In this document: piece after piece, positions 1,672 to 64,000 of the stretch
Layout: each line of letters opens with the position of its first letter
Numbering within the stretch: position 1 is the stretch's first letter
NCBI GenBank assembly: GCA_965220365.1
Contig: OZ244823.1
Location: 81,650-145,649 of the forward strand
DNA from: Rhodothermales bacterium
GTDB taxonomy: Bacteria; Bacteroidota; Rhodothermia; Rhodothermales; Bin80
Direction: 5' to 3'
DNA: 64,000 nucleotides
The notes under the pieces: model-generated
Told to the model about the DNA's origin: nothing
The model's database searches: none
The model's input: only the letters and a program-made list of their open reading frames with translations
Program-made: the position numbers and the translations under genes

Positions 1672-1675
<4 letters not shown>
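899..1675 (+). CDS. xthA: Exodeoxyribonuclease III (AP endonuclease, EEP family)
   Basis: 258 aa. N-terminus is KLVTWNVNSARAR...PDIVCLQEVK and C-terminus is IDHILA...SDHAP, both typical of Xth/ExoIII. Confidence 0.9.
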
Positions 1676-7042
<5,367 letters not shown>

Positions 7043-21900: not shown

Positions 21901-23496
21901 CTGATCTGTGCTCCAATTTGATTTCGTGAACTCCAATTCCTCCTTGTCAAGAGTCACGGGGATCGCTTCGCCGGATCGCTGCGATAACCGCACACGCACT
22001 TTTCTTCCTAAAGGCGGCCCAGTCAACTGAATACTGAACGTCTCACTTGAACCCTCTTGAAATGGATCAATCACCGGTGGGCTCAACACCGGCTTGGGAC
22101 GTGCACTGTCCAGAATCGTCACCTCTACTGATTTCGGATTCCCTGCAACGACCGTAGATGGTAACCCACTTTCATCAATCGCCAACGTGAACAACTCATC
22201 GTCCCTGTCATTGGCATCTGCCTCAGTGGGAATCGTAAGCGTTCCATTCGCGCTTGTAAGATTCCGGGCCCCGGGAATCGTGATGGTTGGCAACGGACCG
22301 TAGTCGCCGACTTCCGCGGAACCCCCAGGAAGGACTGTTAGCGGAACGATCACATCTGTCGCCAGATCTTCCGAAATCGCCGCCGTGATTGTAACTGATC
22401 CACCCTCGTCTACAGGGTTTGGAGATGCCGACAATGTGACCTTCGGTCTATCATTATCCTTGAAGTGAAGCTCTACATAACCTGTCCTCCGAACTGTACC
22501 TCCCAGAACTTCTACATCAATGTGCAGCGTACCGTCGGTGTCGATTTTGTTGTTGTCCGCATGGGACACCGTGACCACCTGATCTGTGCTCCAATTTGAT
22601 TTCGTGAACTCCAATTCCTCCTTGTCAAGAGTCACGGGGATCGCTTCGCCGGATCGCTGCGATAACCGCACACGCACTTTTCTTCCTAAAGGCGGCCCAG
22701 TCAACTGGATACTGAACGTCTCACTTGAACCCTCTTGAAATGGATCAATCACCGGTGGGCTCAACACCGGCTTGGGACGTGCATTATCCAGAATCGTGAC
22801 ATCTACCCATTTCTGATGCCCTGGAACCACCGTAAGCGACAGTCTTGTCTCATCAATCTCCACCGTAAATTCCTCATCATCATTGTCATTGGCATCTGTT
22901 TCAACGGGAATCGTAAGCGTTCCATTCGCGCTTGTACTATTCCCGGGAATCGTGATGGTTGGCAACGGACCATAGTCACTTGGTTCTGCACTGCCCCCAG
23001 CCCTAACCACCAAAGGAACCACTACATCCGTAGACAAAGACTGCGAAATCGTCGCCGTGATCTTGACCGATCCCCCCTCATCCACTATGGTTGGAGACCC
23101 TGCCAATGTGACGGTCACGATATCATCTGGAAACAATCCCGGAATCGTTGCCCTCCACCCGGAGAACCCTTCTGTCACCGGATTCAATACCTGCTTTGAT
23201 ATCCCTGTCAGCGTATCATGACTCGTAGTCTGTGAACTTCCCGAAACACCGAAATAATATAGCCGCTTGCTCTTCTCAACTCCTAGCAGTCCACGGACTG
23301 CTAGGTTATACCTGTCTTGTGCAAACGCAACTCTCTGTGGAGTGGAGAGACTGAAGGAGGTTGTAACTGCGAGGTCTGTGCTAGGCTCAGAGACTATTTG
23401 AACACCAATTTTGCCAAATTCGGTGGATACACTGCCAACTTGGCAAACAATTATTAATGCGATCATATACATATCTCGTCTCGCATGTAAGGCCAA
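9970..23496 (-). CDS. Giant (4,508-aa ORF) Calx-beta-repeat adhesin-like protein with a C-terminal autotransporter (type Va-like) beta-barrel
   Basis: I count 31 modules carrying the D-[DE]-[ET]-F Calx-beta hallmark (e.g. GDYGSLASITIAANALEGTGTITTVRDTDSDDETFTVAL), including two canonical Calx-beta units near the C-terminus. Five modules of a second type are also present (LxFTxxNWxxxQxVT). A linker helix is followed by about 330 aa of alternating-pattern barrel (WGRGAF...GADYRW...ends QGMLRY). The ORF opens at TTG 23496; ATGs at 23472 and 23466 (MYMIALIIVCQVGSV) are more plausible starts. Confidence 0.85.
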   Translation of the reverse strand: MALHARRDMYMIALIIVCQVGSVSTEFGKIGVQIVSEPSTDLAVTTSFSLSTPQRVAFAQDRYNLAVRGLLGVEKSKRLYYFGVSGSSQTTSHDTLTGISKQVLNPVTEGFSGWRATIPGLFPDDIVTVTLAGSPTIVDEGGSVKITATISQSLSTDVVVPLVVRAGGSAEPSDYGPLPTITIPGNSTSANGTLTIPVETDANDNDDEEFTVEIDETRLSLTVVPGHQKWVDVTILDNARPKPVLSPPVIDPFQEGSSETFSIQLTGPPLGRKVRVRLSQRSGEAIPVTLDKEELEFTKSNWSTDQVVTVSHADNNKIDTDGTLHIDVEVLGGTVRRTGYVELHFKDNDRPKVTLSASPNPVDEGGSVTITAAISEDLATDVIVPLTVLPGGSAEVGDYGPLPTITIPGARNLTSANGTLTIPTEADANDRDDELFTLAIDESGLPSTVVAGNPKSVEVTILDSARPKPVLSPPVIDPFQEGSSETFSIQLTGPPLGRKVRVRLSQRSGEAIPVTLDKEELEFTKSNWSTDQVVTVSHADNNKIDTDGTLHIDVEVLGGTVRRTGYVELHFKDNDRPKVTLSASPNPVDEGEQVTITATISEDPVNDVEISFKIIAGTAESSDYGSISGGFITIRGAGNATSGRFILSTLEDNAEQDDETFMVVLGRLPQGVAAGDPSEVEVTIIDDDKVTVNLSASPNPVNEGGSVTVTATISEDPASDVVIPLILTAGAAEAGDYGALPDITIPGTGSATTGMGTIVIPQESDVTDWEDETFTVAIDESGLPSTVVAVDPKSVLVTIIDDDKPTVHLSASPNPVSEGQSVTVTVMLSEDPASDVVIPLTLTAGTAEAGDYGTLSTITIPGAGSVMTGTGTIMIPQESDVTDWEDETFMVAINESGLPSTVVAVAPKSVLVTITDDDKPTIRLSASPNPVSEGQSVKVTVTLSEDPASDVVIPLILTAGTAEAGDYGALSDITIPGTGSATTGMGMIVIPQESDVTDWEDETFTVMIDESNLPATVVIGNPKSALITITDDDKPTITLSASPNSVEEGQSVTVTATISEDPASDVVIPLILTAGTAEAGDYGALSSITIPGNGSVKTGTGTIMVPQESDVTDWEDETFTVAIDESGLPSTVVAVDPKSVLVTIIDDDKPTITLTAFPNPVLEGTGSGVVITVTTSKDLVTDMIIPLTLTAGTAEVGDYGILPSITILGGVLSGTGTIMIPQESDVNDKEDETFTVVLNESSLPSTVVAGNPKSALITITDDEKPTIVLYASPNAVPEGSELSLSVALVPPPSSPFDTEVQVPVMFISGTAQPQDYGSPPQRVIITIPTKGYSGSKDFFIPEDADSGDETFTVLIDEHTIDPRVRVGDMILQEVAITDKPAVSLSATTSVGEGDDLEVTVMLVGTPLPRGERIPLTLIPVTAEQEDYGNLRSISVPLLPGSGVARGTIQTYPDTDSDDDTFTLEIDASSLPSTVVAGAPTSVLVTISEKPTITLSANPNPVDEGDAVTVTARLSGALPAAVTIPLTYRPGAVDPAETGDYGSLASITIAANALTGTGTITTVKDADSDDETFTVALGSLPSEVVAGTPSSVLVTIREKPAVSLSANPNPVDEGSSVTVTATLSQALPAAVTIPLTLTPGTAEKGDYGGLASITIAANSLEGTGTITTVRDTDFDDETFTVALGSLPSEVAAGSPSSELVTITDLDTPTVSLSASPNPVDEGKAVTVTARLSRALPAAVTIPLTLTPGTAEKGDYGSLASITIAANALEGTGTITTVRDTDSDDETFTVALGSLPSEVAAGSPSSELVTITDLDTPTVSLSASPNPVDEGKAVTVTARLSSALPAAVTIPLTLTPGTAEKGDYGSLASITIAANSLEGTGTITTVRDTDFDDETFTVALGSLPSEVAAGSPSSELVTITDLDTPTVSLSASPNPVKEGSSVTVTATLSSALSTSMTIPLTLTPGTAEKGDYGSLASITIAANSLEGTGTITTVRDTDFDDETFTVALGDLPSEVVEGSPSSEEVEITDLDTPPVTPAVHLSATTPVDEGSSVTVTATLSSALPAAVTIPLTLTPGTAEKGDYGSLASITIAANALEGTGTITTVRDTDFDDETFTVALGSLPSGVAAGAPSSVEVTITDLDTPTVSLSANPNPVDEGKAVTVTARLSRALPAAVTIPLTLTPGTAEKGDYGSLASITIAANALEGTGTITTVRDTDSDDETFTVALGSLPSGVAAGTPSSVEVTITDLDTPTVSLFASPNPVDEGKAVTVTATLSRALPTAAVIPLTLTPGTAEAGDYGSLASITIAANALEGTGTITTVKDTDSDDETFTVALGSLPSGVAAGAPSSVEVTITDLDTPTVSLFASPNPVDEGKAVTVTATLSRALPTAAVIPLTLTPGTAEAGDYGSLASITIAANAEAGTGTITTVRDTDFDDETFTVALGDLPSEVVEGTPSSVLVTIREKPAVHLSANPNPVDEGSSVTVTATLSGALPTSVTIPLTQTPGTAEKGDYGGLASITIAANSLEGTGTITTVRDTDSDDETFTVALGDLPSEVVAGTPSSELVTITDLDTPTVSLSASPNPVKEGSSVTVTATLSSALSTSMTIPLTLTPGTAEKGDYGSLASITIAANSLEGTGTITTVRDTDFDDETFTVALGSLPSEVAAGSPSSELVTITDLDTPTVSLSASPNPVKEGSSVTVTATLSSALSTSMTIPLTLTPGTAEKGDYGSLASITIAANSLEGTGTITTVRDTDFDDETFTVALGDLPSEVVEGSPSSEEVEITDLDTPPVTPAVHLSATTPVNEGSSVTVTATLSQALPAAVTIPLTYRPGAVDPAETGDYGSLASITIAANALTGTGTITTVKDADSDDETFTVALGSLPSEVVAGTPSSVLVTIREKPAVSLSANPNPVDEGSSVTVTATLSQALPAAVTIPLTLTPGTAEKGDYGGLASITIAANSLEGTGTITTVRDTDFDDETFTVALGDLPSEVAAGSPSSELVTIRDTPTVSLSASPNPVKEGSSVTVTATLSSALSTSMTIPLTLTPGTAEKGDYGSLASITIAANSLTGTGTITTVKDADSDDETFTVALGDLPSEVVAGTPSSVLVTIRDTPTVSLSASPNPVDEGEDVTVTARLSRALPTAAVIPLTLTPGTAEAGDYGSLASITIAANSLEGTGTITTVKDADSDNETFTVALGDLPSEVAAGTPSSVGVEITDLDTPAVILPNVSLSASPNPVGEGSSVTVTATLSSALPAAVTIPLTYRPGAVDPAEPNDYVPVSEITIISGSGSGTAVVRTTPDNISEGGERFVVALGTLPADVEAGHPSEVEITIIDDDDPPPVEVTLSVDPEVVDEGDPVTVRVTLANPLETAVTIPLAYTPYTSEPGDYIELKQVTVAGEETEGTGQIVTIADTDTQDERFIVSLGDLDPAVLEPGLESSHWVTIRDRVPPEVVRVDLFASTNPVAEGEAVTVTVKLSEELPAAVTIPLVLTPGSADAQDYHAAAPMQVRIEREETSGTYVIRTTPDEIDEEDETFTVRVGALPEGMVAGDSLDITIEDDDAVGIEASPSISLLEGGTEEYRFSLASEPLGAVTVTMDWPRGTDLTVSPITRIFTPSDWNEPQQVTLTADEDDDISPDRVEVTLRATGADYTGEVYVLQVTIIDKDTPGIVAPHAVRIEEETDSEFGVHLSAKPSGTVTVTVSGFAGELTASPTRLSFTTTNWETPQTVTLTAGHDDDVVDDSETLTLTADGGGYAGIEHRVTVTVEDNDEAEIVAPAEVTMAEGTQSALEVRLSAEPSGTVTIALTGHAGTQLTLDRASLTFTTTNWKTSQTVTLTAAEDDNDEEDQVRLLLTASGGGYNGVSHTTQVTITDKGPVTISIWSQQGSENAGRLQLPIELSRATDQVVTVQYASSDDTAEAGLDYTASRGVVIFDPGATRGVVEIAIIDDELPEDDETFRVTLSNARNATIARGTGTGTILDDDQSAAALRVEDARVLEEEAEVRFRVLLSQPQREMVSAQYRTRDGTARAGEDYQASSGVVTLAPGTTEAMIAVPLLKGGLDWGQETFTLHLSSSEHARIEKAVGVATIQESTTVSERVLEAYAARFVRTSSVQVVEALGDRFRSAADGAACTALERAEMAQLWYSRWDPSPGELLAGCRMSESMLLPGGSLSVWGRGAFRQFNGQQPLTLRGEVTTAMLGADYRWRGGWLAGVLLAHSRGDGSFEVENESGDITSALTGIYPYASYTRAGWEVWLSGGAGRGQAEVSELDAEMTTRFGAMGMRGTLASGGSARLRYHGDLLVTGAEIEEHAITAEVVRVRVGLEASAQITKGIRPYVEANVRQDGGSAETGTGLELGGGVRFASPAWRLRGEVRTQGLVMHTADGFTEWGFSGSLQVGNRSEGLTMSLRPSWGRAQGMSMYRQQTILDAVPIGAGRQRTDLELGYGIPWKEGTARSVMGVTQLPGGRMYRLGGQLRPWERLSVSIFGLAHRRNAAPGDIGVNVQGMLRY
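13830..19030 (-). repeat. About 16 head-to-tail copies of a 324-bp (108-aa) coding repeat with higher-order identical blocks
   Basis: Antisense ORFs in the track recur with a 324-nt period (16337/16661; 16949/17273; 17930/18254/18578). Identical 100-111-aa antisense ORFs occur at 14675 vs 18578 and at 15112 vs 17383. Confidence 0.9.
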
Positions 23497-53110: not shown

Positions 53111-54463
53111 TTATTCAAATAATGGGCGACTCGGATTCAATTCACCAGTATAATAGCGGATCAGGCGTTTGCGCACGAAGATGGTATAGCGCGCAGCCAC
53201 CGCATCCTGAGAGGCCTGTACAAAATCGGATTGTGCCTGTGTGAGCTCAACCAAGGTTGCTGCCCCGACATTGTAGCGCTCGCGGGTCGCTTCCAATGCC
53301 TGCTCACGGAATACTAATTGCCTTTGAGTTACTTCAAGTTCTTTTTGTGCTGTCACGTAGTCTAAATACGCTTGGCGCACTTCAACCCCGATCTGCTGCT
53401 GAGTGGCTTCAACATTGATCTTGGCATTTTCATGGACGACTCGGGCCCGCTGAACCTGTGAGCGCGTCCGGAGACGATTAAAGATCGGGAAACTCAGGGA
53501 AAGTGAGACGGATTCTGATCGGTTGTTCTCCAACTGTTCTCCAAAATCAACACTTTCAATTCCACTGTTGAAGCTTGTACCGGTGTTGGCTGAGAGGCTC
53601 AGTTGCGGCATCATACTACTTCGGGCTACCCGCAACCCTTGCTCTGCTGCATCTACGGCAACTTCCTGTGAGCGTAAATCTCCACGTTGCAGTTGTGCAC
53701 GCTGATAGAGATCTCGCAGATCATACTCTTCTGGTACCAGTAGTTCATCCGACAAGTCTGGAACTACAAATTCGTAACTGCCCATGGGATCCAACCGCAA
53801 AACCTGAAGCAAATTTGCTTCAGATATCTGGGCCAACTGCTCAGTCTGCAATATCGCGAGCTCTGCAGATTCCACTGCTGCCTGTTGCTGATACAGGTCT
53901 GATACTGGACGTGTACCAACCCGTACGAATTCTTCGATCTGGGCCAGAAGCTGCTGTGCAGCAGCCAAATTTTCTTCCTGTACTGTGATCTGCTCGGAAG
54001 CCTGGATATATGCAAGGAATTGGCTGGCAACCTGAAAAACCACCAGTTGACGCTGACGCTCAAGGGCCAAGTCAGCAGAAGTTACATTTAATCGGCTCTC
54101 CCGAAGGTTTGCCTGACTCTGAAACCCATCAAACAGGGTCAGAGACGTAGATGCACCCACGTTGAAGCGGGTATTCCTCGTAGTGCGAAGCTCTCCCACA
54201 TTCGTGTCAAACGACAACCCCCAATTGCTCCCTCCACCTGTACCTACATTAAAACTCGGCAAAAACGCCGCCCATGCAGACTGCACGCCAATCTCACTCA
54301 GCCGCACCTGATTGGCACTCTGCCGCAGTTGCGTGTTCTGATCCAAGGCAATTTGCACTGCCTCTTCAAAAGTGATGGTTTGTTGAGCTTTCGGAACGGA
54401 AACGAGGATCAAGGCGGTCAGGAGACTCACACAAAAACTGCGTAACAGGACTCGGATAGTCAT
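53111..54463 (-). CDS. TolC-family outer-membrane efflux protein
   Basis: 450 aa with a signal peptide and duplicated TolC repeat structure. It is directly abutted to the adaptor gene. Confidence 0.88.
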   Translation of the reverse strand: MTIRVLLRSFCVSLLTALILVSVPKAQQTITFEEAVQIALDQNTQLRQSANQVRLSEIGVQSAWAAFLPSFNVGTGGGSNWGLSFDTNVGELRTTRNTRFNVGASTSLTLFDGFQSQANLRESRLNVTSADLALERQRQLVVFQVASQFLAYIQASEQITVQEENLAAAQQLLAQIEEFVRVGTRPVSDLYQQQAAVESAELAILQTEQLAQISEANLLQVLRLDPMGSYEFVVPDLSDELLVPEEYDLRDLYQRAQLQRGDLRSQEVAVDAAEQGLRVARSSMMPQLSLSANTGTSFNSGIESVDFGEQLENNRSESVSLSLSFPIFNRLRTRSQVQRARVVHENAKINVEATQQQIGVEVRQAYLDYVTAQKELEVTQRQLVFREQALEATRERYNVGAATLVELTQAQSDFVQASQDAVAARYTIFVRKRLIRYYTGELNPSRPLFE

Positions 54464-54644
54464 GAGTGCGCTTAATTGGATGGATTCAAGAACGACAACT
54501 TTGTTTAAGGATAGAGTTAGCGCCGTGTCAGCAGCCTGTATGTACGAAGGCTTATCACAGTTGTTACATTTTAGGGCCTACGCAACACCAAACCCCTCTT
54601 GTATATAACTCTACAGTGGAGGCTTCTAACCTATCGAACGACCC

Positions 54645-55484
54645 TTACCTTGCGTGAAATTTCAGGTTTTCCCGGCGATGTTTTTGGCGAAGTTTCCGGA
54701 TTGCTTTTTCTTTGATTTGGCGTACCCGCTCCCTCGTTAGATCAAATCGGTGGCCAATTTCTTCCAGTGTCAGTGGATGTTCACGTCCAACTCCAAAAAA
54801 GAGTCGGGTGATTTCTGCCTCACGGGGGCAAAGACTACTGAGTGCGACTTCAATATCAATCTTCAGGGATTCTCCCTGGAGAGATTCATCGGGAGGAGTA
54901 ACCTCGTCACTGGGTAGAATATCCAGAAGACTGTTTTCATCCTCATCGTTAAAGGGGGCATCCATCGATAGATGCCGACTCGTCCGCTGCATTGCATTGC
55001 GGACCTTTTCTATATCAATCTGTAGATCAGCCGACAGTTCTTCCAGATTCGGATCCCGTTCATGCTGTTGCGAAAGCCGGGCACTGCTCTTGCGAATTTT
55101 GCTGATCGTGCCAATCTGATTCAGGGGCAGACGTACGACCCGGCCCTGTTCTGCCAGAGCCTGAAGGATTGACTGGCGAATCCACCATACGGCATAGGAG
55201 ATGAACTTGAACCCGCGTGTTTCATCAAAGCGTTTGGCCGCTTTGATAAGGCCATAGTTCCCTTCATTGATCAAATCAGTGAGGTGCAGACCCTGTCCCT
55301 GAAATTTTTTCGCTACCGAAACAACGAAGCGGAGATTGGCACGGGTCAGCTTCAGGAGCGCTTCCTCGTCACCTTGTTTGATCCGCCGGGCTAACTCCGC
55401 CTCTTCCGCGGGAGTTACAAGGTCAATCTGACCAATTTCCTTCAGATATTGGTCCAGCATTCGCTGGCGACGTGGGACGTACAT
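54645..55484 (-). CDS. rpoD: Primary RNA polymerase sigma factor (short Bacteroidetes-type SigA/RpoD)
   Basis: 279 aa. Region 2 is [12 protein letters not shown]...[18 protein letters not shown]...[13 protein letters not shown]. Region 3 is [16 protein letters not shown]. Region 4 is [29 protein letters not shown]. Confidence 0.93.
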
Positions 55485-55551
55485 GTGGGTGCGACTCCGG
55501 TAAGTTTGTCTCAGATTTTACAACTAGAACTGAATCAGGAAAAGGTTTACA

Positions 55552-55582
55552 CAAATAAGCCTAACAATGATCCAAGCCAAAA
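55552..55582 (-). promoter_or_regulatory. Candidate Bacteroidetes-type promoter for rpoD (TTTTG-N19-TTATTTG)
   Basis: On the minus strand it reads cTTTTGgcttggatcattgttaggcTTATTTGtg, about 68 nt upstream of the ATG. It only approximates the -33 TTTG / -7 TAnnTTTG consensus. The block is copied in both inter-paralogue spacers. Confidence 0.25.
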
Positions 55583-55591
55583 GATTTACAC

Positions 55592-57916
55592 CTATATGTC
55601 TACGGGTTGCTTCTTCAAAATGAACACCCCTTCCCTGCGACTTGTCACAACAATAATTCCACTCTCAAAGTATGGGAAACTGCTCCAGGTTCCATTGAAT
55701 CCGGCCTCATCCGTCCCATACGGGGTGGTATCAAAGTGTCCAATCTCAACAGGATCCTCCGGCGAGGATACATCGATAATACGCAGACCACTCGCATTAT
55801 TGGTCTGGTACATCAGATTGCCATGTATATACAGATTGTGATCCGTCGCTGAGGTGGGTCCATAGAACTCACGAATCATGATCGGATCACTTAGATCCCT
55901 CACATCCCAAACCAGTGTGCGTGTTTTATGAACCTTGCCCTGGATTTCATCAAGCTCATCATTCTGGAAAAAATAGGAATGATCCTCTGTGAGCCAACCC
56001 TGATGCACGTACGCAGCATCAGGATAGGAGCCGGTTCCAATTGCAACCGGGTTTTCTTTGTCGGTCACATCCGATATACTGATTGCCGTTTCATTGGCAC
56101 CGAAGCAAATTTCACGTCCAGCGTATTCACTGTCTGGTCCATGGTAAATCATACACTGCGCATCATGGCTGTATCCGGTCTTGCGGCGTCCGGTTGTCTC
56201 GTCTGCAAAGCATCCGGCAAAAACAGGAGCCTGGGGTTCACGGATATCAATCATGTGCAACCCTCCGCCACAGGTTTCTCCTCCGGCGGAGGCTCCCACC
56301 GCAAAGGCAAACCCCGTCTCTTCATTAATGACAATATTATGAGCGCTGTGAATACGATCATAATGTGCCGTTGCTTTGAACTCCACTGGAGTATTGGTAA
56401 GTCCTCTAAGTTGCGTCAGGTCGAAGATCTGCATTCCATGCTCCCGGGCGCCATCGGCGACAATAAATGCGTGATCCTTATACACCTTGATATCCCGCCA
56501 GGTACTTCCTGGCGAGCCTTCTGTCCGGGGCAGGGTTCCCAGGTATCTGGGGCTTGATGGAGTACTCAAATCAACGAAAACCGTCCCCTCAAGATGGCCG
56601 ATCAAACCATACTCAATTCCGGTTTCGGGATCGGTCCATCCCCACACATCACTCAGGCGCACCCCACGATTCATCTCCATTTCTTCATTCGGAAGAAAGG
56701 AAACCAGGTCCACAAGCCCACAATCAAACCCTTCTGCCTGTCCACCATCACACAGGATGTCAGCTTTACGGGGCATGTGCTCATGAACATAAAAGAGTTC
56801 TTGGACCATCTCCCATACACCGCCATTGAATTCCAGTAGTTCAGCACTTCCTTCTCCATATGCAGCACTTGGGGATCCAACCGCCATTACGCTTCCGTCC
56901 ACGGCAACCGTAGATCCAAGTGAGAAGCCGATCCCTGGAACAGTGATATACTCAGGTTCTGAATCCTCATGTACGGTATAGACACGTAAATTTTCTTCTG
57001 CGTCACGAGGCCCAAACACGGGGAATCCAACAACGATCCGCAACGGATCCTGGATCTCAACCTGAAATCCAAAAAAGGACCCAGTGGCATCTTCTTCTGG
57101 AGTAAGAATTTTCACCTTTTTCCATCCTGAATTTTCCGTATTCTCTTGCTGCCAGACGACGACTGCACCTTTTCTTGAATTGTGTTGGGGGGCTCCGACC
57201 ACTGCGCGCTCCCCCCTCAGGTCCAAGGTCACTCCATACATGGATTCTGCACTCAGTTCCCCGCAAGGCAACGTTGCAGACAATCCCCACCCATCAGCTT
57301 GATACTCGTACAGGTACGCAGTACAAAGTCCGGGAGAGCCAATCAGGAGGCGTCCCTGATCCATCGAAAGTGCACTCCCATACATGGATGCAGATGACTC
57401 TCCGGGTTCTTCAAGAATCGTTCTTCTGCCCCACGTTCCCTCCGAGTCCTTCCGAAAGAGGTGGACCTGGCCAGCGGATCCGTCGGCCTGCGAGGCGCCT
57501 ATGGCAAGCCACCCGTCATCCAGCGCAAGAGCAGTACCAAACGTGCTGTTGTCCTCTGACTCCAGCCGATCCGTCTGCACAAAGTGGTCCGTCTCAGGAT
57601 TCAGTTCAAACACGTACACTGCGGATTGATCTGCAACCGCCAGTGTTCCGTCCCCATACCCGATTGTGTGGCCGAATCCATCCCCTACGTGGGCATCCCC
57701 GTGCAATGAGTTCTTCCAAACCCATTTCTGGTCGTCTCCCCGCACGTAGACATGAACCATCCCATGGGTTTCAAATCCACCCGACTCTGATATAAAGAGA
57801 TGGCCATCCCCGGCAGTAATTGCTCTACCAAACCGATCAGCCAGATCGGTGGGATTGGCCCAGGTCGGGGATACTGCGAAGAAAGCAAACAGGTATAAGG
57901 CAAGAGATTTGCGCAT
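55592..57916 (-). CDS. Secreted double-propeller protein, paralogue 1: FG-GAP-like repeats plus an LVIVD/choice-of-anchor-B domain
   Basis: Signal MRKSLALYLFAFFAVSPTWA. N-terminal half has repeated [LIV]A[VI]G[AS]P...G.[VA]Y[LV]F blades. C-terminal half has DVWGWTDPETGIEYGLIG, KDHAFIVADG, GLRIIDVSSPEDPVEIGHFDT. The ORF track start of 58009 runs into the spacer. Confidence 0.8.
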   Translation of the reverse strand: MRKSLALYLFAFFAVSPTWANPTDLADRFGRAITAGDGHLFISESGGFETHGMVHVYVRGDDQKWVWKNSLHGDAHVGDGFGHTIGYGDGTLAVADQSAVYVFELNPETDHFVQTDRLESEDNSTFGTALALDDGWLAIGASQADGSAGQVHLFRKDSEGTWGRRTILEEPGESSASMYGSALSMDQGRLLIGSPGLCTAYLYEYQADGWGLSATLPCGELSAESMYGVTLDLRGERAVVGAPQHNSRKGAVVVWQQENTENSGWKKVKILTPEEDATGSFFGFQVEIQDPLRIVVGFPVFGPRDAEENLRVYTVHEDSEPEYITVPGIGFSLGSTVAVDGSVMAVGSPSAAYGEGSAELLEFNGGVWEMVQELFYVHEHMPRKADILCDGGQAEGFDCGLVDLVSFLPNEEMEMNRGVRLSDVWGWTDPETGIEYGLIGHLEGTVFVDLSTPSSPRYLGTLPRTEGSPGSTWRDIKVYKDHAFIVADGAREHGMQIFDLTQLRGLTNTPVEFKATAHYDRIHSAHNIVINEETGFAFAVGASAGGETCGGGLHMIDIREPQAPVFAGCFADETTGRRKTGYSHDAQCMIYHGPDSEYAGREICFGANETAISISDVTDKENPVAIGTGSYPDAAYVHQGWLTEDHSYFFQNDELDEIQGKVHKTRTLVWDVRDLSDPIMIREFYGPTSATDHNLYIHGNLMYQTNNASGLRIIDVSSPEDPVEIGHFDTTPYGTDEAGFNGTWSSFPYFESGIIVVTSRREGVFILKKQPVDI

Positions 57917-57945
57917 TACTCTTGAATAAGTCATGGTTCGTTGAT

Positions 57946-58087
57946 GGATCCCGTTCATGCTGCTGCGAAAGCCGGGCACTACTCTTGCGAATTTTGCTGA
58001 TCGTGCCAATCTGATTCAGAGGGAGGCGTATGACCCGATCCTGCTCCGCCAAAACTCAAAGAATTGGGTGGCGACATGGGCCATACA
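57946..58087 (-). pseudogene. Fossil of rpoD internal coding sequence (sigma region 2.4-3.0), spacer 1
   Basis: Colinear with 55051-55191 at a constant offset of 2,895 nt. It encodes ..[35 protein letters not shown]. The shared antisense ORF tail [22 protein letters not shown] appears in ORFs 54712-55119 and 57820-58014. Confidence 0.9.
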
Positions 58088-58192
58088 GTGTGCCGGCTCC
58101 GGCGAATTTGTCTCAAATTTTACAGTCAAACCGAATTAGGAAGGGGTTTACACAAATAAGCCTAACAATGATCCAAGCCAAAAGATTTATCC

Positions 58193-60526
58193 CTAAATAT
58201 CTACGGGTTGCTTCTTCAAAATAAATACCCCTTCCCTGCGACTGGTCACGACGATAATTCCACTCTCAAAGTATGGATAGCTGCTCCAGGTTCCATTGAA
58301 TCCGGCATCATCTGCCCCATACGGGGTGGTGTCGAAGTATCCAATCTCAACAGGATCCTCTGGTGAGGATACATCAATGATCCGCAGGCCACTCTTATAA
58401 TTGGTCTGATACATCAGATCACCGTGTATATACAGATTATGATCCGACGCTGAAGTAGGTCCATAGAACTCACGTATCATGATCGGGTCACTTAGATCCC
58501 TCACATCCCAAACGAGAGTACGTGTCTTCTCAACCTTGTCATACATTTCATCAAGCTCATCATTCTGGAAAAAATAGGAATGATCTTCTGTGAGCCAACC
58601 CTGGTGTACATACACGGCATCAGGATAGGAGCCGGTTCCGATTGCGACTGGATTTTCCTTATCTGTCACATCCGATATACTTATCGCCGTTTCATTGGCA
58701 CCGAAGCAAATTTCACGTCCAACGTACTCGCTATCTGGTCCATGGTATATCACGCACTGCGCATCATGACTGTATCCGGTCTTGCGGCGTCCGGTCGTCT
58801 CGTCTGCAAAGCATCCGTTAAAAACAGGGGCCTGGGGCTCACGGATATCAATCATATGCAACCCTCCGCCACAGGTCTCTGCTCCCCCAGAAGCCCCCAC
58901 CACAAAAGCAAACCCCGTCTCTTCATTAATGACAATGTTATGAGCGCTGTGGATACGGTCATAATGTGCCGTTGCTTCGAACTCCACTGGAGTGTCGGGG
59001 AGTCCCCTGAGTTGTGTCAGGTCGAAGATCTGCATGCCATGCTCCCGGGCACCATCGGCGACAATAAATGCGTGATCCTTATACACCTTGATATCCCGCC
59101 AGATACTTGCCAAGGAGCCTTCTGTACGAGGCAGGGTTCCCAAGTACCTGGGATTCGATGGAGTACTCAAATCAAGAAAGACCGTCCCTTCAAGATGACC
59201 GATCAAACCATACTCAATTCCGGTTTCGGGATCGATCCATCCCCACACATCACTCAGGAGCACTCCGCGATCCATCTCCATTTCTTCATTCGGAAGAAAG
59301 GAAACCAGATCCACATGTCCACAATCAAACTCTTCTGCCCGTCCATCACCACACATGACATTAGCCCTACGTGGTATATACCTACGAATGTAAAAGAGTT
59401 CTTGGACCACTTCCCACGCACCATCATTGAATTCCAGCAGTTCAGTGCTTCCTTCTCCATAAGCAGCACTTGGGGATCCAACCGCCATTACGCTTCCATC
59501 CACGGCAACTACGGAGCCGGATGAAACAACGATTCCAAGAACTGTGACGTACGCAGATTCCGAATCTTCATCTTCCTGCACGGTATAGACACGTAAATTT
59601 TCTTCTGCGTCACTGTCCCGTCCACGTAGTCCTCCAGACGCGGGAAATCCAACAACGATCCGTAGAGGATCCTGAATCTCGACCTGTGAACCAAAACGAA
59701 ACCCAGAAGCATCTTCCTCTGGCGTAAGAATTTTTGCCTTTTTCCACCCGGAGTCTTCCGTATTCTCCCGCTGCCAGACAACAACTGCACCTTTTGTTGA
59801 ATTGTGTTGGGGAGCTCCGATCACCGCACGCTCCCCCTTTAGATCCAGATTCATTCCGTACATGGATTCTGCACTCAGTTGCCCACAGGGCAACGTTGCA
59901 GACAACGCCCACCCGTCGGCTTGATATTCGTACAGATATGCAGCACAAAGTCCGGGCGAGCCAATCAGAAGGCGTCCCTGGTCCATCGAAAGTGCAATCC
60001 CATACATGGATGCAGCTGACTCTCCGGGTTCTTCAAGAATCGCCCTTCTGATCCACGTTCCTTTCGAGCTCTTCCGAAAAAGGTGGACATGACCAGTAGA
60101 CCCATTGGACTGTGAGGTGCCTACGGCAATCCATCCATCATCCAATGCAAGAGCGCTGCCAAACGTGCTCATGTACTTTGACTCCAGCCGCCCCGTCTGC
60201 ACAAAACGATCCGTCTCAGGATCCAGCTCAAACACGTACACTTTAGATCGTTCTGAAACCGCCAGTATCCCGTCTCTATATTCGATTGTATCGCCGTATC
60301 CACCTCCTACATGTAATGAGTCTTTCCAAACCCATTTCTGGTCGTCTCCGCGCACATAGACATGAACTATTCCGTGGGCTTCAAACCCGGCCGACTCTGA
60401 TATAAAGAGATAGCCATCCCCAGTAGTAATCGCTCGACCGAACCCATCAGCCAGACCGGTTTGGTTTGCCGAAGCCAGGGATACTGCGAGGAAAGCAAAC
60501 AGGCATGAGGCGAGAGACCTGCACAT
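58193..60526 (-). CDS. Secreted double-propeller protein, paralogue 2
   Basis: Signal MCRSLASCLFAFLAVSLASA, same architecture. The ORF track start of 60745 is an in-frame run through the rpoD fossil. Confidence 0.8.
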   Translation of the reverse strand: MCRSLASCLFAFLAVSLASANQTGLADGFGRAITTGDGYLFISESAGFEAHGIVHVYVRGDDQKWVWKDSLHVGGGYGDTIEYRDGILAVSERSKVYVFELDPETDRFVQTGRLESKYMSTFGSALALDDGWIAVGTSQSNGSTGHVHLFRKSSKGTWIRRAILEEPGESAASMYGIALSMDQGRLLIGSPGLCAAYLYEYQADGWALSATLPCGQLSAESMYGMNLDLKGERAVIGAPQHNSTKGAVVVWQRENTEDSGWKKAKILTPEEDASGFRFGSQVEIQDPLRIVVGFPASGGLRGRDSDAEENLRVYTVQEDEDSESAYVTVLGIVVSSGSVVAVDGSVMAVGSPSAAYGEGSTELLEFNDGAWEVVQELFYIRRYIPRRANVMCGDGRAEEFDCGHVDLVSFLPNEEMEMDRGVLLSDVWGWIDPETGIEYGLIGHLEGTVFLDLSTPSNPRYLGTLPRTEGSLASIWRDIKVYKDHAFIVADGAREHGMQIFDLTQLRGLPDTPVEFEATAHYDRIHSAHNIVINEETGFAFVVGASGGAETCGGGLHMIDIREPQAPVFNGCFADETTGRRKTGYSHDAQCVIYHGPDSEYVGREICFGANETAISISDVTDKENPVAIGTGSYPDAVYVHQGWLTEDHSYFFQNDELDEMYDKVEKTRTLVWDVRDLSDPIMIREFYGPTSASDHNLYIHGDLMYQTNYKSGLRIIDVSSPEDPVEIGYFDTTPYGADDAGFNGTWSSYPYFESGIIVVTSRREGVFILKKQPVDI

Positions 60527-60555
60527 TACTGTCGAGTAAGCCATGGTTCGTTCGT

Positions 60556-60676
60556 GGATCCTGTTCATGCTGTTGCGAATTTTGCTGATCGTGCCAATCT
60601 GATTCAGAGGCAGACGTACGACCCGATCCTGCTCCGCCAAAACTAAAAGAATTGGGTAGCGACATGGGCCATACAG
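60556..60676 (-). pseudogene. Fossil of rpoD internal coding sequence, spacer 2 (carries a 22-nt deletion between ttgcga repeats)
   Basis: ggatcctgttcatgctgttgcga|attttgctgatcgtgccaatctgattcagaggcagacgtacgacccg aligns to rpoD 55051 onward. Confidence 0.9.
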
Positions 60677-60786
60677 TGTGCGCGACCCCGACGAATTTAT
60701 CTCGGATTTTACAGCTAAAACCGAATTAGGAAGGGATTTACACAAATAAATAAGTCTAACAATGATTCAAGCCGAAAGATTTATGC

Positions 60787-63111
60787 CTATATATCTACGG
60801 ATTGCTTCTTCAAAATGAACACACCTTCCCTGCGACTGGTCACGACAATAATTCCACTCTCAAAATATGGGTAGCTACCCGAAGCTCCATTGAGGCCAGC
60901 ATCATCCGCCCCATACGGGGTGGTGTCGAAGTGTCCAATCTCAACGGGATCCTCTGGCAAGGATACATCAATGATGCGCAAGCCACTCTCATGATTGGTC
61001 TGGTACATCAGATCACCGTGGATATACAGATTGTGATCCGTCGCTGAGGTGGGTCCATAGAACTCACGAATCATGATCGGATCACTTAGATCCCTCACAT
61101 CCCAAATCAGGGTGCGTGTCTTCTCAACCTTGCCCTGGATTTCATCATGTTCATCATTCTGGAAAAAATAGGAATGATCTTCTGTGAGCCAACCTTGGTG
61201 CACGTATGCAGCATCAGGATAAGAACCAGTTCCGATTGCAACCGGGTTTTCTTTGTCCGTCACATCTGATATACTGATCGCTGTTTGATTGGCACCAAAG
61301 CAAATTTCACGTCCAGCGTATTCGCTATCCGGTCCATGGTAAATCACACACTGCGCATCATGAGTGTATCCGGTCTTGCGTCGTCCGGTTGACTCGTCTG
61401 CAAAGCACCCGGCAAAAACAGGGGCTTGGGGTTCACGGATATCAATCATGTGCAACCCTCCGCCACAGGTCTCTCCGCCCGCGGAAGTTCCCACCGCAAA
61501 GGCATACCCCGTCTCTTCATTAATGACAATATTGTGAGCACTGTGGATCTGGTCGTACTGTGCGGTTACTTCAAACTCGACCGGAGTATCGACGAGCCCT
61601 CTGAGCTGCGTCAGGTCAAAGATCTGCATTCCATGCTCCCAGGCACCATCGGAAACAATAAATGCGTGATCCTTATACACCTTGATATCCCGCCAGATAC
61701 TTGCTGGGGAGCCTTCCGTACGAGGCAGGGTTCCCAAATACCTGGGATTTGATGGAGTACTCAAATCAAGGAAGACCGTGCCTTCCAGGTGACCGATCAA
61801 CCCGTATTCAATTCCGGTTTCAGGATCGGTCCATCCCCATAGATCACTCAGGACCACTCCGCGATCCATCTCCATTTCTTCATTCGGCAGAAATGAAACC
61901 AAGTCCACATGCCTACAATCAAACTCTTCTGCCCGTCCATCATCACACAGGATGTCAGCCTTACGGGGTATATCCCTACGAACGTAAAAGAGTTCTTGGA
62001 CCATCTCCCACGCACCATCATTGAATTCCAGCAGTTCAGCACTTCCTTCTCCATATGCAGTCTCTGGGGATCCAACTGCTATTACACTTCCATCCACGGC
62101 AGCCGTGGATTCAAATGAGAAGGCGACTCCCGGAACGGTGGTGTACTCAGGTTCCGAATCCTCATCTTCCTGCACGGTATAGACACGTAAATTTTCTTCT
62201 GTGTTACTGCCCCATCCAAACACGGGGAACCCAGCAACGATGATCCGCAGTGGATCCTGAATCTCGACCTGCGAACCAAAACGAGACCCGGGGGCATCTT
62301 CCTCTGGAGCAAGAATTTTCACCTTTTTCCACCCGGAGTCTTCCGTATTCTCCTGCTGCCAGACAACGACTGCACCTTTTGTTGAATTGTGTTGGGGAGC
62401 TCCGATCACCGCACGCTCCCCCTTTAGATCCAGATTCATTCCGTACATGGATTCTGCACTCAGTTGCCCACAGGGCAACGTTGCAGACAACGCCCACCCG
62501 TCGGCTTGATATTCGTACAGATATGCAGCACAAAGTCCGGGCGAGCCAATCAGAAGGCGTCCCTGGTCCATCGAAAGTGCAATCCCATACATGGATGCAG
62601 CTGACTCTCCGGGTTCTTCAAGAATCGCCCTTCTGATCCACGTTCCTTTCGAGCTCTTCCGAAAAAGGTGGACATGACCAGTAGACCCATTGGACTGTGA
62701 GGTGCCTACGGCAATCCATCCATCATCCAATGCAAGAGCACTGCCAAACGTGCTCATGTACTTTGACTCCAGCCGCCCCGTCTGCACAAAACGATCCGTC
62801 TCAGGATCCAGCTCAAACACGTACACTTTAGATCGTTCTGAAACCGCCAGTATCCCGTCTCCATATTCGATTTTATCCCTGTATCCACCTCCTACATGCA
62901 ATGAATCTTTCCAAACCCATTTCTGGTCGTCTCCCCGCACATAGACGTGAATCATCTCGTGGGCTTCAAACCTGTCCGACCCTGATATAAAGAGGTAGCC
63001 ATCCCCAGTAGTAATCGCTCGACCGAACCCATCAGCCAGACCGGTTTGGTTTGCCCAAGCCAGGGATACTGCGAGGAAAGCAAACAGGCATGAGGCGAGA
63101 GACCTGCACAT
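60787..63111 (-). CDS. Secreted double-propeller protein, paralogue 3
   Basis: 774 aa with signal MCRSLASCLFAFLAVSLAWA. The ATG lies 25 nt downstream of the tRNA-Val 3' end. Confidence 0.85.
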   Translation of the reverse strand: MCRSLASCLFAFLAVSLAWANQTGLADGFGRAITTGDGYLFISGSDRFEAHEMIHVYVRGDDQKWVWKDSLHVGGGYRDKIEYGDGILAVSERSKVYVFELDPETDRFVQTGRLESKYMSTFGSALALDDGWIAVGTSQSNGSTGHVHLFRKSSKGTWIRRAILEEPGESAASMYGIALSMDQGRLLIGSPGLCAAYLYEYQADGWALSATLPCGQLSAESMYGMNLDLKGERAVIGAPQHNSTKGAVVVWQQENTEDSGWKKVKILAPEEDAPGSRFGSQVEIQDPLRIIVAGFPVFGWGSNTEENLRVYTVQEDEDSEPEYTTVPGVAFSFESTAAVDGSVIAVGSPETAYGEGSAELLEFNDGAWEMVQELFYVRRDIPRKADILCDDGRAEEFDCRHVDLVSFLPNEEMEMDRGVVLSDLWGWTDPETGIEYGLIGHLEGTVFLDLSTPSNPRYLGTLPRTEGSPASIWRDIKVYKDHAFIVSDGAWEHGMQIFDLTQLRGLVDTPVEFEVTAQYDQIHSAHNIVINEETGYAFAVGTSAGGETCGGGLHMIDIREPQAPVFAGCFADESTGRRKTGYTHDAQCVIYHGPDSEYAGREICFGANQTAISISDVTDKENPVAIGTGSYPDAAYVHQGWLTEDHSYFFQNDEHDEIQGKVEKTRTLIWDVRDLSDPIMIREFYGPTSATDHNLYIHGDLMYQTNHESGLRIIDVSLPEDPVEIGHFDTTPYGADDAGLNGASGSYPYFESGIIVVTSRREGVFILKKQSVDI

Positions 63112-63136
63112 TACTGTTGAATAAATCGTGATTCGC

Positions 63137-63213
63137 TGGTGGGCCCTACGGGATTCGAACCTGTGACCTCTCGCGTGTGAGGCGAGCGCTCTAAACCACT
63201 GAGCTAAGAGCCC
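63137..63213 (-). tRNA. tRNA-Val (anticodon CAC), CCA-encoded
   Basis: Folded by hand. Acceptor GGGCTCT/AGGGCCC, D-stem GCTC/GAGC, anticodon stem CTCGC/GCGAG with loop CT-CAC-AC, T-arm ACAGG-TTCGAAT-CCCGT (one A.C mismatch), discriminator A + CCA. 77 nt. Confidence 0.85.
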
Positions 63214-63662
63214 TTAGCCGGAGAGATCTCCGTCGACGACCCGCCGTTAACGCGCTTAGCCTGCTTGGGGTCCTGAATCTGAGTCTCCGCAATCGGGCCT
63301 GCCGCACTACGCAACCCGGACATAGGGGCGGGAATATACTGAGAAGTCCCTGCTACGAGTGCTGCTGCCAAGGCAATTGCCGCCGCCGTTCCAACCAGAA
63401 TACTGGTATGTGGTGGGCGCACCGGGGTCGCGAATGGAAGGCACTGGGATAAACGTGCGCGAACCCTCTTCCGCAAATCTTTCGGTGCCCGAAAGCTATA
63501 CTCGCTCAGTAGCCGCCGGGTACCACGCAAGTGCTTGACTTTCTTTGCAAGTCTGGAATCACACTCCAAGCACTCCTCAAACACGGCGCGGACCGAGCAA
63601 TCCATTGTGCCATCTACGTACTCACACAGGAACTCGTCCATCCAGGAGACTCGGTTCAACAT
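63204..63662 (-). CDS. Putative anti-sigma factor (zf-HC2-like N-terminus, single TM)
   Basis: EFLCEYVDGTMD...FEECLECDSRLAKKVKHL resembles an anti-sigma Zn-finger. TM segment ILVGTAAAIALAAALVAG. The last 10 nt overlap the tRNA 5' end. Confidence 0.45.
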   Translation of the reverse strand: MLNRVSWMDEFLCEYVDGTMDCSVRAVFEECLECDSRLAKKVKHLRGTRRLLSEYSFRAPKDLRKRVRARLSQCLPFATPVRPPHTSILVGTAAAIALAAALVAGTSQYIPAPMSGLRSAAGPIAETQIQDPKQAKRVNGGSSTEISPAKGS

Positions 63663-63826
63663 GATGCGCGGAAGTAGCGATGTAGCATACGATCAGGTGT
63701 TCTAAGTCAGTGAGATGTGAGCCTGCATAATAGGGACATAATGAAAGCTGAGCCCGAATGTTTCCAAGTTCTCCGTGTGATTACTAGGATAATTTGCGGA
63801 ATGTTCACAAAATCTCCACAAAATCC

Positions 63827-64000
63827 TCAACGCGCGTGATGCTGTAAAGGTTCTGCCAGTAAGCGTGTAATGAAAAGTGTCATGATTGAACGGGGGCTAC
63901 GCTTGGAAAATCCTTTGATTTCGCTATCGGTACTCAAAAGCAGTTGGATTGCCCGCTTGACTTCTGGAAGTGGCCAGCTACTGATGGCCTCGTGATACCG
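63827..64000 (-). CDS. 3' end (57 codons) of a gene running off the window; DNA polymerase III delta (HolA)-like C-terminus (tentative)
   Basis: Open frame from 64000 to the TGA at 63827-63829. ..SWPLPEVKRAIQLLLSTDSEIKGFSKRSPRSIMTLFITRLLA resembles the HolA domain III tail. Confidence 0.35.
   Translation of the reverse strand, partial: RYHEAISSWPLPEVKRAIQLLLSTDSEIKGFSKRSPRSIMTLFITRLLAEPLQHHAR

Follow-up and report, generated by a model that had tools for sequence, protein, structure and literature searches.

Spacers of a three-copy paralogue array in a Rhodothermales bacterium as probable remains of a duplication joint between a sigma-70 family gene and tRNA-Val

We analyzed a tandem array of three co-oriented genes in the window, a 64-kb stretch of contig OZ244823.1 from a Rhodothermales bacterium. 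The genes, here called P1, P2, and P3, are paralogues separated by two spacers (S1 and S2), and the array lies between a tRNA-Val gene and an intact sigma-70 family gene. We conclude with high confidence that the array was produced by two successive tandem duplications of a single chromosomal gene, P, and that the spacers preserve, in decayed form, the joint made by the first of them. Comparison with related loci indicates that the array arose in two steps, from one copy to two and from two copies to three, with a lineage split between them. Coordinates throughout are those of the window, and L-numbers denote related loci.

Between 54.6 and 63.7 kb, every feature is on the minus strand. The order on that strand is an antisigma-like open reading frame (ORF), tRNA-Val(CAC), a linker, P3, S2, P2, S1, P1, an intergenic region, and the sigma gene, downstream of which lie an outer-membrane efflux gene and a membrane-fusion gene. 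Gene calls and a repeat finder placed all three paralogues and both spacers where the first-pass annotation of this DNA had put them. The features are as follows.

63204-63662, minus strand: antisigma-like ORF (NF052375, weak match).
63137-63213, minus strand: tRNA-Val(CAC) (ARAGORN; Rfam tRNA, 67.8 bits); the unit that was duplicated ends distally with the last 4 nucleotides (nt) of this gene, ACCA (63140-63137).
63112-63136, minus strand: native tRNA-Val-to-P3 linker, 25 nt; with ACCA, the source of part a of the spacers.
60787-63111, minus strand: P3, distal paralogue, 774 amino acids (aa); TIGR04312, E=4e-125; in the distal clade of the gene tree.
60676-60786, minus strand: S2 part c'', copy of the 107-nt region from the P stop to the sigma start, with a 4-nt insertion in the window strain.
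60656-60675, minus strand: S2 part b0'', remnant of sigma codons 1 to 7, with the ATG lacking its A.
60556-60655, minus strand: S2 part b'', sigma codons 105 to 145 with an extra 22-nt deletion (alignments, BLAST).
60527-60555, minus strand: S2 part a'', copy of ACCA and linker, ending at the P2 start codon (alignments).
58193-60526, minus strand: P2, middle paralogue, 777 aa; sister to P3.
58088-58192, minus strand: S1 part c', copy of the sigma-upstream intergenic region, including the GGATCATTG...GTGTAAAC block.
58068-58087, minus strand: S1 part b0', remnant of sigma codons 1 to 7 (alignment, BLAST).
57946-58067, minus strand: S1 part b', sigma codon 105 to the second base of codon 145, corresponding to 55172-55051.
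57917-57945, minus strand: S1 part a', copy of ACCA and linker; presumed ancestral joint GGGATCC/ACCAACGAACC (here and below, a slash marks the joint).
55592-57916, minus strand: P1, sigma-adjacent paralogue, 774 aa; the slowest-evolving copy, with a ratio of nonsynonymous to synonymous divergence (dN/dS) of 0.09-0.10.
55485-55591, minus strand: native P1-sigma intergenic region (part c), 107 nt, presumably the site of the sigma promoter and leader; a block within it is conserved across all eleven related loci.
54645-55484, minus strand: intact sigma-70 family gene, 279 aa, with regions 1.2, 2, 3, and 4; of the primary type.

S1 (57917-58192; 276 nt) and S2 (60527-60786; 260 nt) were searched by BLASTN against the whole window. 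S1 matched in three blocks: 57946-58074 against 55051-55179 (86% over 129 nt; E=1.7e-39), 58060-58189 against 55456-55588 (83% over 133 nt; E=2.4e-31), and 57917-57947 against 63112-63142 (81% over 31 nt; E=0.014). S2 gave the same three blocks (E=7e-25, 7e-25, and 2.5e-5), including 60648-60783 against 55456-55588 at 77% identity (E=7e-25). Beyond these blocks, nothing in the 64-kb window scored better than an E of about 0.5. In a MAFFT alignment, the three blocks were colinear with the single-copy flanks. BLASTN and MAFFT thus bear out the three-part chimera that had been proposed for each spacer, with parts colinear with the interior of the sigma gene (called rpoD in the first-pass annotation), its 5' flank, and the tRNA-side DNA.

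Starting directly after the stop of the preceding paralogue, both spacers consist of a copy of the 107-nt sigma-upstream region, sigma codons 1 to 7, a 291-nt gap, codons 105 to 145, and a final 29 nt. The whole 107-nt region is thereby copied before both P1 and P2. The second BLAST block reaches 29 nt into the sigma coding sequence, and the alignments resolve the remnant of codons 1 to 7 (TGTATGGCCCATGTCGCC versus ATGTACGTCCCACGTCGCC), which occupy 55464-55484 in the intact gene; the downstream segment kept in the spacers is 55051-55172. The final 29 nt comprise ACCA, the end of the tRNA, followed by a copy of the linker between the tRNA and P.

Both breakpoints of the primary joint could be placed to the nucleotide. 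On the sigma side, the break falls after position 55051, in codon 145, and the sigma gene supplies ...AACGGGATCC. On the other side, it falls at position 73 of tRNA-Val, where the tRNA reads GGGCCC/ACCA, and the spacers continue from ACCA onward (from 63140). A unit boundary inside the sigma gene had been suggested and stands; the other boundary had been put beside the tRNA and is in fact 4 nt inside it. The majority form across spacers is ...GAACGGGATCC/ACCAACGAACC..., which, judging from the aligned spacers, is presumably ancestral. Microhomology had also been described at this junction. It is present, and its exact part is confined to CC within an imperfect GGGnnCC match: GGGATCC/G in the sigma gene and GGGCCC/ACCA in the tRNA share 2 nt exactly, with GGG slightly upstream in both. 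Junction alignments and single-copy relatives both support the tandem duplication from the sigma interior to tRNA-Val, with its B/A joint, that had been put forward.

Two deletions have since remodeled the joint. All spacers lack 55173-55463 of the sigma gene, a 291-nt segment corresponding to codons 8 to 104. Its endpoints lie in the 12-mers TCGCCAGCGAAT (55470-55459) and TCGCCAGTCAAT (55179-55168), both of which contain TCGCCAG; the two 12-mers are exactly 97 codons apart, and the deletion is therefore in frame. Across this deletion joint, S2 of locus L003 still reads CGCCAGTCAAT, which is exactly the variant of the repeat that lies inside the sigma gene. In Pfam coordinates, region 1.2 (aa 10-41) is lost entirely with this segment, as is most of region 2 (aa 47-115). 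A later loss from the duplicated sigma sequence had been proposed for codons 1 to 98 (55192-55484). The later deletion is upheld, with the extent corrected to codons 8 to 104; it happened once, before the second duplication, rather than in each copy. The second deletion, of 22 nt, lies between TTCGCAA repeats equivalent to sigma positions 55096-55090 and 55074-55068. Every three-copy strain has it in S2, whereas S1 and the spacers of two-copy genomes lack it.

Informative relatives were found by a protein search with P1 followed by contig look-ups. A scan of a genome collection with the sigma protein yielded listed best matches 60-71% identical (Rubricoccaceae, Balneolales, and Bacteroidota), and the ten matches examined had no tRNA within their 10-kb flanks; the ORFs around the two nearest of those listed, L011 and L012, added no useful comparison. 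The synteny comparison that the first-pass annotation had recommended gave a graded series. In five lineages, a lone P separates tRNA-Val from the sigma gene, the arrangement being antisigma-like ORF, one P, sigma gene, and efflux genes (P identity at the aa level: L091, 77%; L098, 75%; L099, 73%; L094, 69%; L097, 68%). These include contigs of 3.71 Mb (L091), 3.21 Mb (L094), and 3.83 Mb (L097), and tRNA-Val was confirmed upstream of P in both single-copy loci scanned (L091 and L094). Three further lineages have two copies: L092/L093 (Rhodothermaceae bacterium GCA_009842625.1 by its NCBI name), L095, and L096. Their single spacer has the same composition, the identical GGATCC/ACCAACGAACC joint, and the 291-nt deletion, without the 22-nt deletion.

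Trees of the flanks were built from the sigma gene plus 5.6 kb downstream and from 880 nt upstream of the first paralogue. They grouped the three-copy loci with the two-copy loci as sister clades, joined by L091 and then by L097 and L094. A codon-based neighbor-joining tree of all paralogues placed P1 in a clade that includes the sigma-proximal gene of two-copy genomes (bootstrap, 100%). The distal clade also had 100% support, and within it P2 and P3 of three-copy loci stood apart from the distal gene of two-copy genomes (100%). When the halves of the gene were analyzed, the C-terminal half gave separate orthologue clades for P2 (100%) and P3 (99%); in the N-terminal half, P2 of the window grouped with P3. 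As had been anticipated, the flank and gene trees, together with the one-, two-, and three-copy relatives, allow the order of events to be reconstructed.

Tandem arrays readily shed units by homologous recombination (PMC5918244), so the two-copy genomes might instead be secondary, with triplication preceding the split of the clades and three copies later collapsing to two. In L001, the synonymous divergence (dS) between P2 and P3 (0.46) is indeed as large as that between P1 and P2 (0.41). Loss of P2 or P3, however, would leave a gene nested inside the P2-P3 clade, and the distal gene of all three two-copy genomes falls outside it, with bootstrap support of 100% for the full gene and 73-100% for each half. 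Two-copy spacers also lack the S2-specific 22-nt deletion and share derived changes of their own. We consider such a collapse very unlikely.

The position of the breakpoint within the last 4 nt of tRNA-Val recalls the integrative elements that commonly use tRNA 3' ends as integration sites. P or the whole unit could on that account have been brought by a mobile element targeting the tRNA-Val 3' end, the repeats being successive integrations. No integrase or transposase gene and no terminal or inverted repeats were found in or beside the unit, and the repeated part of the tRNA is only 4 nt. Moreover, the single-copy relatives, to as little as 69% aa identity, all have P between tRNA-Val and the sigma gene with fully conserved flanks. 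At its other end, the unit consists of sigma coding sequence preceded by the native upstream region of that gene, a structure that local duplication alone accounts for. An origin by integration has a negligible probability.

Because tandem repeats are a classic source of short-read misassembly, a single or double gene might have been assembled into three near-identical copies. The copies differ by 9-14% at the nt level, far above what assembly collapses or inflates. An exact look-up of the sigma protein returned contigs from at least 8 independent metagenome assemblies, from different samples and carrying three or four study tags, all colinear with the window and 91.6-99.9% identical to it over the region; the tags hint that sponge-microbiome surveys may be their source. 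Six contigs span the whole array and have tRNA-Val followed by three paralogues, with the same S1/S2 architecture, including the 22-nt deletion in S2. L007 and L008, which are truncated or frameshifted distally, agree with them over the shared part. L008 is 99.945% identical to the window, and the style of its name suggests a long-read assembly. Across strains, each copy forms its own orthologue clade and each spacer has its own fixed diagnostic indel. The first-pass annotation had itself raised the possibility of an artefact. The frameshifted copies of L008 (coverage of 2.84x) could be taken in its favor; set against the same three-copy structure in the other assemblies, they leave it with almost no likelihood. 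In the gene calls of L008 (772-5690; coverage taken from its name), P3 and P2 are split or shortened, and these frameshifts are probably sequencing errors rather than real pseudogenes.

With these alternatives weighed, we return to two successive duplications and propose the following course. The ancestor would have carried the antisigma-like ORF, tRNA-Val, P, and the sigma gene. Illegitimate recombination, by RecA-independent template switching or by unequal sister exchange as candidate routes, would have fused sigma codon 145 to position 73 of tRNA-Val. This first step would have duplicated about 2.9 kb, running from ACCA through the 25-nt linker, P, and the 107-nt intergenic region to the end of the stretch of sigma codons 1 to 145. 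The original joint would have carried the sigma upstream region plus a 5' fragment encoding regions 1.2 and 2 and the start of region 3. A single in-frame deletion of 291 nt, removing codons 8 to 104, would have followed during or soon after the first duplication. The lineage would then have split, one branch retaining two copies. In the branch of the window, unequal homologous crossing-over would have created the third copy and a second, identical spacer; the exchange is taken to be homologous because the existing spacer was copied and no new joint was made. Later changes would include the 22-nt deletion in S2, frameshifts and loss of the start codon in the sigma remnants, gene conversion between paralogues, and strain diversification.

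The sigma gene itself was examined with several profile sets. All four of Pfam Sigma70_r1_2, r2, r3, and r4 scored above their cut-offs in the 279-aa protein, and the closest PDB matches were SigA/RpoD, followed by RpoS and SigB. Over its full length, the protein is 60-64% identical to sigma-70 family genes in many Bacteroidota, Balneolales, and Ignavibacteria. No NCBIfam RpoD equivalog cut-off was reached (best models, 243-271 bits; cut-offs, 354-572). This is expected of a short Bacteroidetes-type primary sigma factor, since the primary sigma factor of Bacteroidetes lacks region 1.1 (PMC6847099); the lack of that region also fits the length of 279 aa. Three-copy strains, although 4-5% divergent at the nt level, all encode one and the same protein; even toward the most distant relatives, dN/dS does not exceed 0.03-0.04, and synteny is conserved. 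We regard it as a primary-type sigma factor, very probably the housekeeping one. The name rpoD is fair in the sense of a short primary-type sigma factor of the Bacteroidetes kind, with the equivalog threshold left unreached. The sigma gene was never interrupted, because the last unit runs on into its undisturbed remainder and the truncated copy exists only at an internal joint; the native upstream region of the intact gene is likewise unchanged. The earlier description of a duplication that "breaks into" an essential gene, and of the event as "unusual," was overstated, as the gene is intact and its dN/dS is at most 0.03.

All three copies of P are intact and under purifying selection, with dN/dS between paralogues of 0.17-0.30, so the extra copies have been retained for function. 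Each protein has a signal peptide, FG-GAP repeats in the N-terminal half (which matches FG-GAP_2), and a choice-of-anchor B domain in the C-terminal half. TIGR04312 covers model positions 2-364 of 364 in all three, at 418-435 bits against a cut-off of 100; a literature search on choice-of-anchor B gave no usable result. Pairwise identity is 85.7-90.6% at the nt level and 83.6-89.4% at the aa level. Starts are spaced 2585 and 2610 nt apart. The repeat finder reported three copies 2585-2622 nt apart and a separate three-copy family tying 55051-55179 to both spacers.

The copies have not diverged evenly. P1 orthologues have dN/dS of 0.09-0.10, compared with 0.08-0.11 for single-copy orthologues, and the distal copies have 0.18-0.25, their nonsynonymous evolution being about twice as fast as that of P1. 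In this asymmetry, seen in the window, L001, L003, and L092, P1 keeps the ancestral dN/dS despite its new upstream context. In a sliding-window comparison, P2 and P3 were 99-100% identical over about 450 nt (gene nt about 300-750), at about 59776-60226 in P2 and 62361-62811 in P3. The tract is confined to the window strain (identity in L001 is 85-91%) and is the product of recent gene conversion.

We also considered whether the sigma segments in the spacers, rather than being duplication joints, are functional elements that were recruited from the sigma gene or are kept similar to it by conversion, and for which the array is kept; they might encode a small protein or a regulatory RNA, or act as a 5' leader. 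In the three-copy clade, the sigma gene and the two spacers share an almost invariant block of about 37 nt, CTGAATCAGATTGGCACGATCAGCAAAATTCGCAA, and the distance from spacer to sigma gene is 0.14-0.18 in that clade, against 0.20-0.31 in the two-copy clade. Among three-copy strains, spacer divergence amounts to 7.1-7.5% of sites, compared with 17.6-18.6% of four-fold sites in four flanking single-copy genes, a 2.5-fold slower divergence (p about 1e-9). Synonymous divergence of the adjacent P2 is equally low, however, and between the two- and three-copy clades the spacers are about neutral (18.4% versus 22.1%, or 0.184 versus 0.221; p=0.24). No reading frame is conserved: the sigma remnants are noncoding, with the ATG missing its A in three-copy loci, strain-specific 1- or 2-nt indels, and early stops in two-copy genomes. 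RNAalifold on 11 spacers returned a weak consensus fold (covariation term, -3.7 kcal/mol), and Rfam at permissive thresholds matched only the tRNA. When tracts of gene conversion linking the intact sigma gene to the spacers were looked for, only single-site coincidences turned up, and derived changes common to all spacers (GAGTAGTG versus GAGCAGTG) have not been overwritten by the sigma gene. Even if the spacers function now, their colinear chimeric make-up needs a duplication origin. This alternative to a duplication joint is very improbable.

Spacer constraint was accordingly rejected as evidence of function, the spacers being no slower than the adjacent P2 and near neutral between clades. 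The center of the array as a whole, S2-P2-S1 (57917-60786, compared with L001 and L003), shows neutral-type divergence of 7-10%; that of the flanking genes is 18-19% and that of P3 is 21%. This low central divergence may reflect strain exchange or gene conversion (homogenization), not spacer-specific constraint.

The S2 remnant is in frame with P2, and gene callers lengthen P2 upstream into it (an 850-aa ORF here, 60745-60527). Several assemblies have 823-aa P2 calls; in L001, 4807-4944 is concerned. The upstream extension differs between strains and is probably an annotation artefact.

We then turned to what the joint may have contributed to expression. The sigma-upstream region contains a block made up of GGATCATTG, 11-12 nt, and GTGTAAAC (55540-55570), which is conserved in all relatives down to 83% nt identity of the sigma gene and in every spacer (copies at 58140-58170 and 60735-60770). 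It matched no promoter consensus tried. A scan of 54400-64000 for sigma-70-type promoters and intrinsic terminators found none on the minus strand in the spacers or upstream of the sigma gene, and counts of sigma-70-type promoters in that interval were at or below the shuffled expectation. The Bacteroidetes -7 motif TAnnTTTG occurred 16 times in the whole window, against 19.5 expected, and no match was conserved in the copied region. By these motif counts, the organism does not obviously use the Bacteroidetes -7 promoter type, despite its short Bacteroidetes-like sigma factor.

Ancestral P starts only 25-30 nt past the tRNA, which must place its own promoter on the far side of that gene; the duplicated copies lost this promoter. 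Transcription of P1 and P2 may start in the copy of the sigma upstream region (promoter capture), come from upstream read-through, or do both; for these two genes, read-through is as possible as promoter capture. Regions 1.2 and 2, which the original fragment included, contain the main core-binding surface of sigma factors. A fragment of residues 1 to 145 expressed from the sigma promoter could compete with full-length sigma factor. The 291-nt deletion takes out exactly the core-binding part and may have been favored for that reason. A literature search on the toxicity of truncated sigma fragments retrieved no support. We tentatively suggest, as a possibility to which we give rather less than even weight, that the joint was exapted: the sigma upstream region would have become the promoter or leader of P1 and P2, and the deletion would have been selected to disarm an interfering core-binding sigma fragment. 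If this is true, P1 and P2, which are secreted propeller proteins, would be expressed like a housekeeping gene, and the locus would be a natural, dated example in which a dominant-negative by-product of duplication was disarmed and a housekeeping promoter recruited.

Several points weigh against our interpretation of the locus. No promoter (sigma-70 or Bacteroidetes -7) or terminator was recognized in the copied region, and promoter capture is unproven. The low spacer divergence offers no clean evidence of constraint, as four-fold divergence of the adjacent P2 is also low (10%; compared with the spacers, Fisher p=0.18). Microhomology of 2 nt at the primary joint constrains the mechanism weakly. 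The 291-nt deletion is inseparable in time from the first duplication, and the two possibly formed one complex template-switch event. All of the sequences, finally, are metagenome assemblies.

Other features of the window were noted. The antisigma-like ORF overlaps the 5' end of tRNA-Val by 10 nt, a layout found in all related loci examined. With this overlap upstream and P3 25 nt downstream, tRNA-Val appears, from gene positions, to be embedded in a protein-coding transcription unit. Elsewhere, a giant ORF of 4508 aa (9970-23496, minus strand) has Calx-beta, LapA, PKD, and BatD-like repeats and an autotransporter beta-domain, and is probably a large adhesin. polA (1672-4407) and ligA (4404-6617) lie near it, so the window is ordinary chromosome.

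Families of tandem surface or secreted paralogues evolve by unequal crossing-over and gene conversion. The present array resembles them in its co-oriented paralogues, mosaic identity tracts, and differences in copy number between related lineages. In most such families the original joint is unrecognizable, whereas here it is a piece of a highly conserved gene and its breakpoints can be located exactly.

The array also has a counterpart in the rnk-citG duplication of Cit+ Escherichia coli, the original report of which is said to be that of Blount et al. in 2012. In that duplication, the rnk promoter and a truncated fusion ORF ended up before citT (PMC5918244). Both are head-to-tail duplications of a few kilobases with both ends inside flanking genes; in both, the joint sets the upstream region and a truncated 5' ORF of the downstream neighbor before the next copy, and the array can expand or collapse by homologous recombination. 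Unlike rnk-citG, which arose in the long-term evolution experiment, the present duplication is natural, old (paralogue dS of about 0.4-0.5), and fixed in several lineages, with a one-, two-, and three-copy series preserved. Its truncated neighbor is the sigma gene, very probably the housekeeping one, and the truncated copy later lost the core-binding part by an in-frame deletion. Expression of citT from the rnk promoter was demonstrated experimentally, whereas expression from the region copied here is putative.

Tandem duplications that arise by illegitimate recombination and create promoter fusions have been described more generally (Anderson and Roth 1978, as cited in PMC11111574) and in the TDAH system (PMC11111574). 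Like the duplications of PMC11111574, the one reported here has a novel B/A join with microhomology of a few nt, involves no mobile element or long repeats, and was followed by further amplification via homologous unequal exchange. Those laboratory duplications are unstable and are held by selection for dosage or expression; here the copies have diverged by 10-16% in protein and are under purifying selection. This points to retained, possibly diverging functions of the P copies rather than to simple dosage.

The mechanism is not new, nor is this a new kind of system; the locus is a new example of a familiar process that can be read with unusual clarity. In bacteria, the joint of an old tandem duplication seldom remains recognizable. 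In this case, a slowly evolving, well-understood gene lies at the joint (which reads GGATCCACCAACGAACC). Each breakpoint, a pair of later microhomology deletions, and the succession of five events can therefore be resolved to the nucleotide and compared with living one-, two-, and three-copy lineages. The locus may thus serve as a teaching and benchmark case of how paralogue arrays start by illegitimate recombination, grow by unequal crossing-over, and are remodeled by deletion, gene conversion, and asymmetric divergence.

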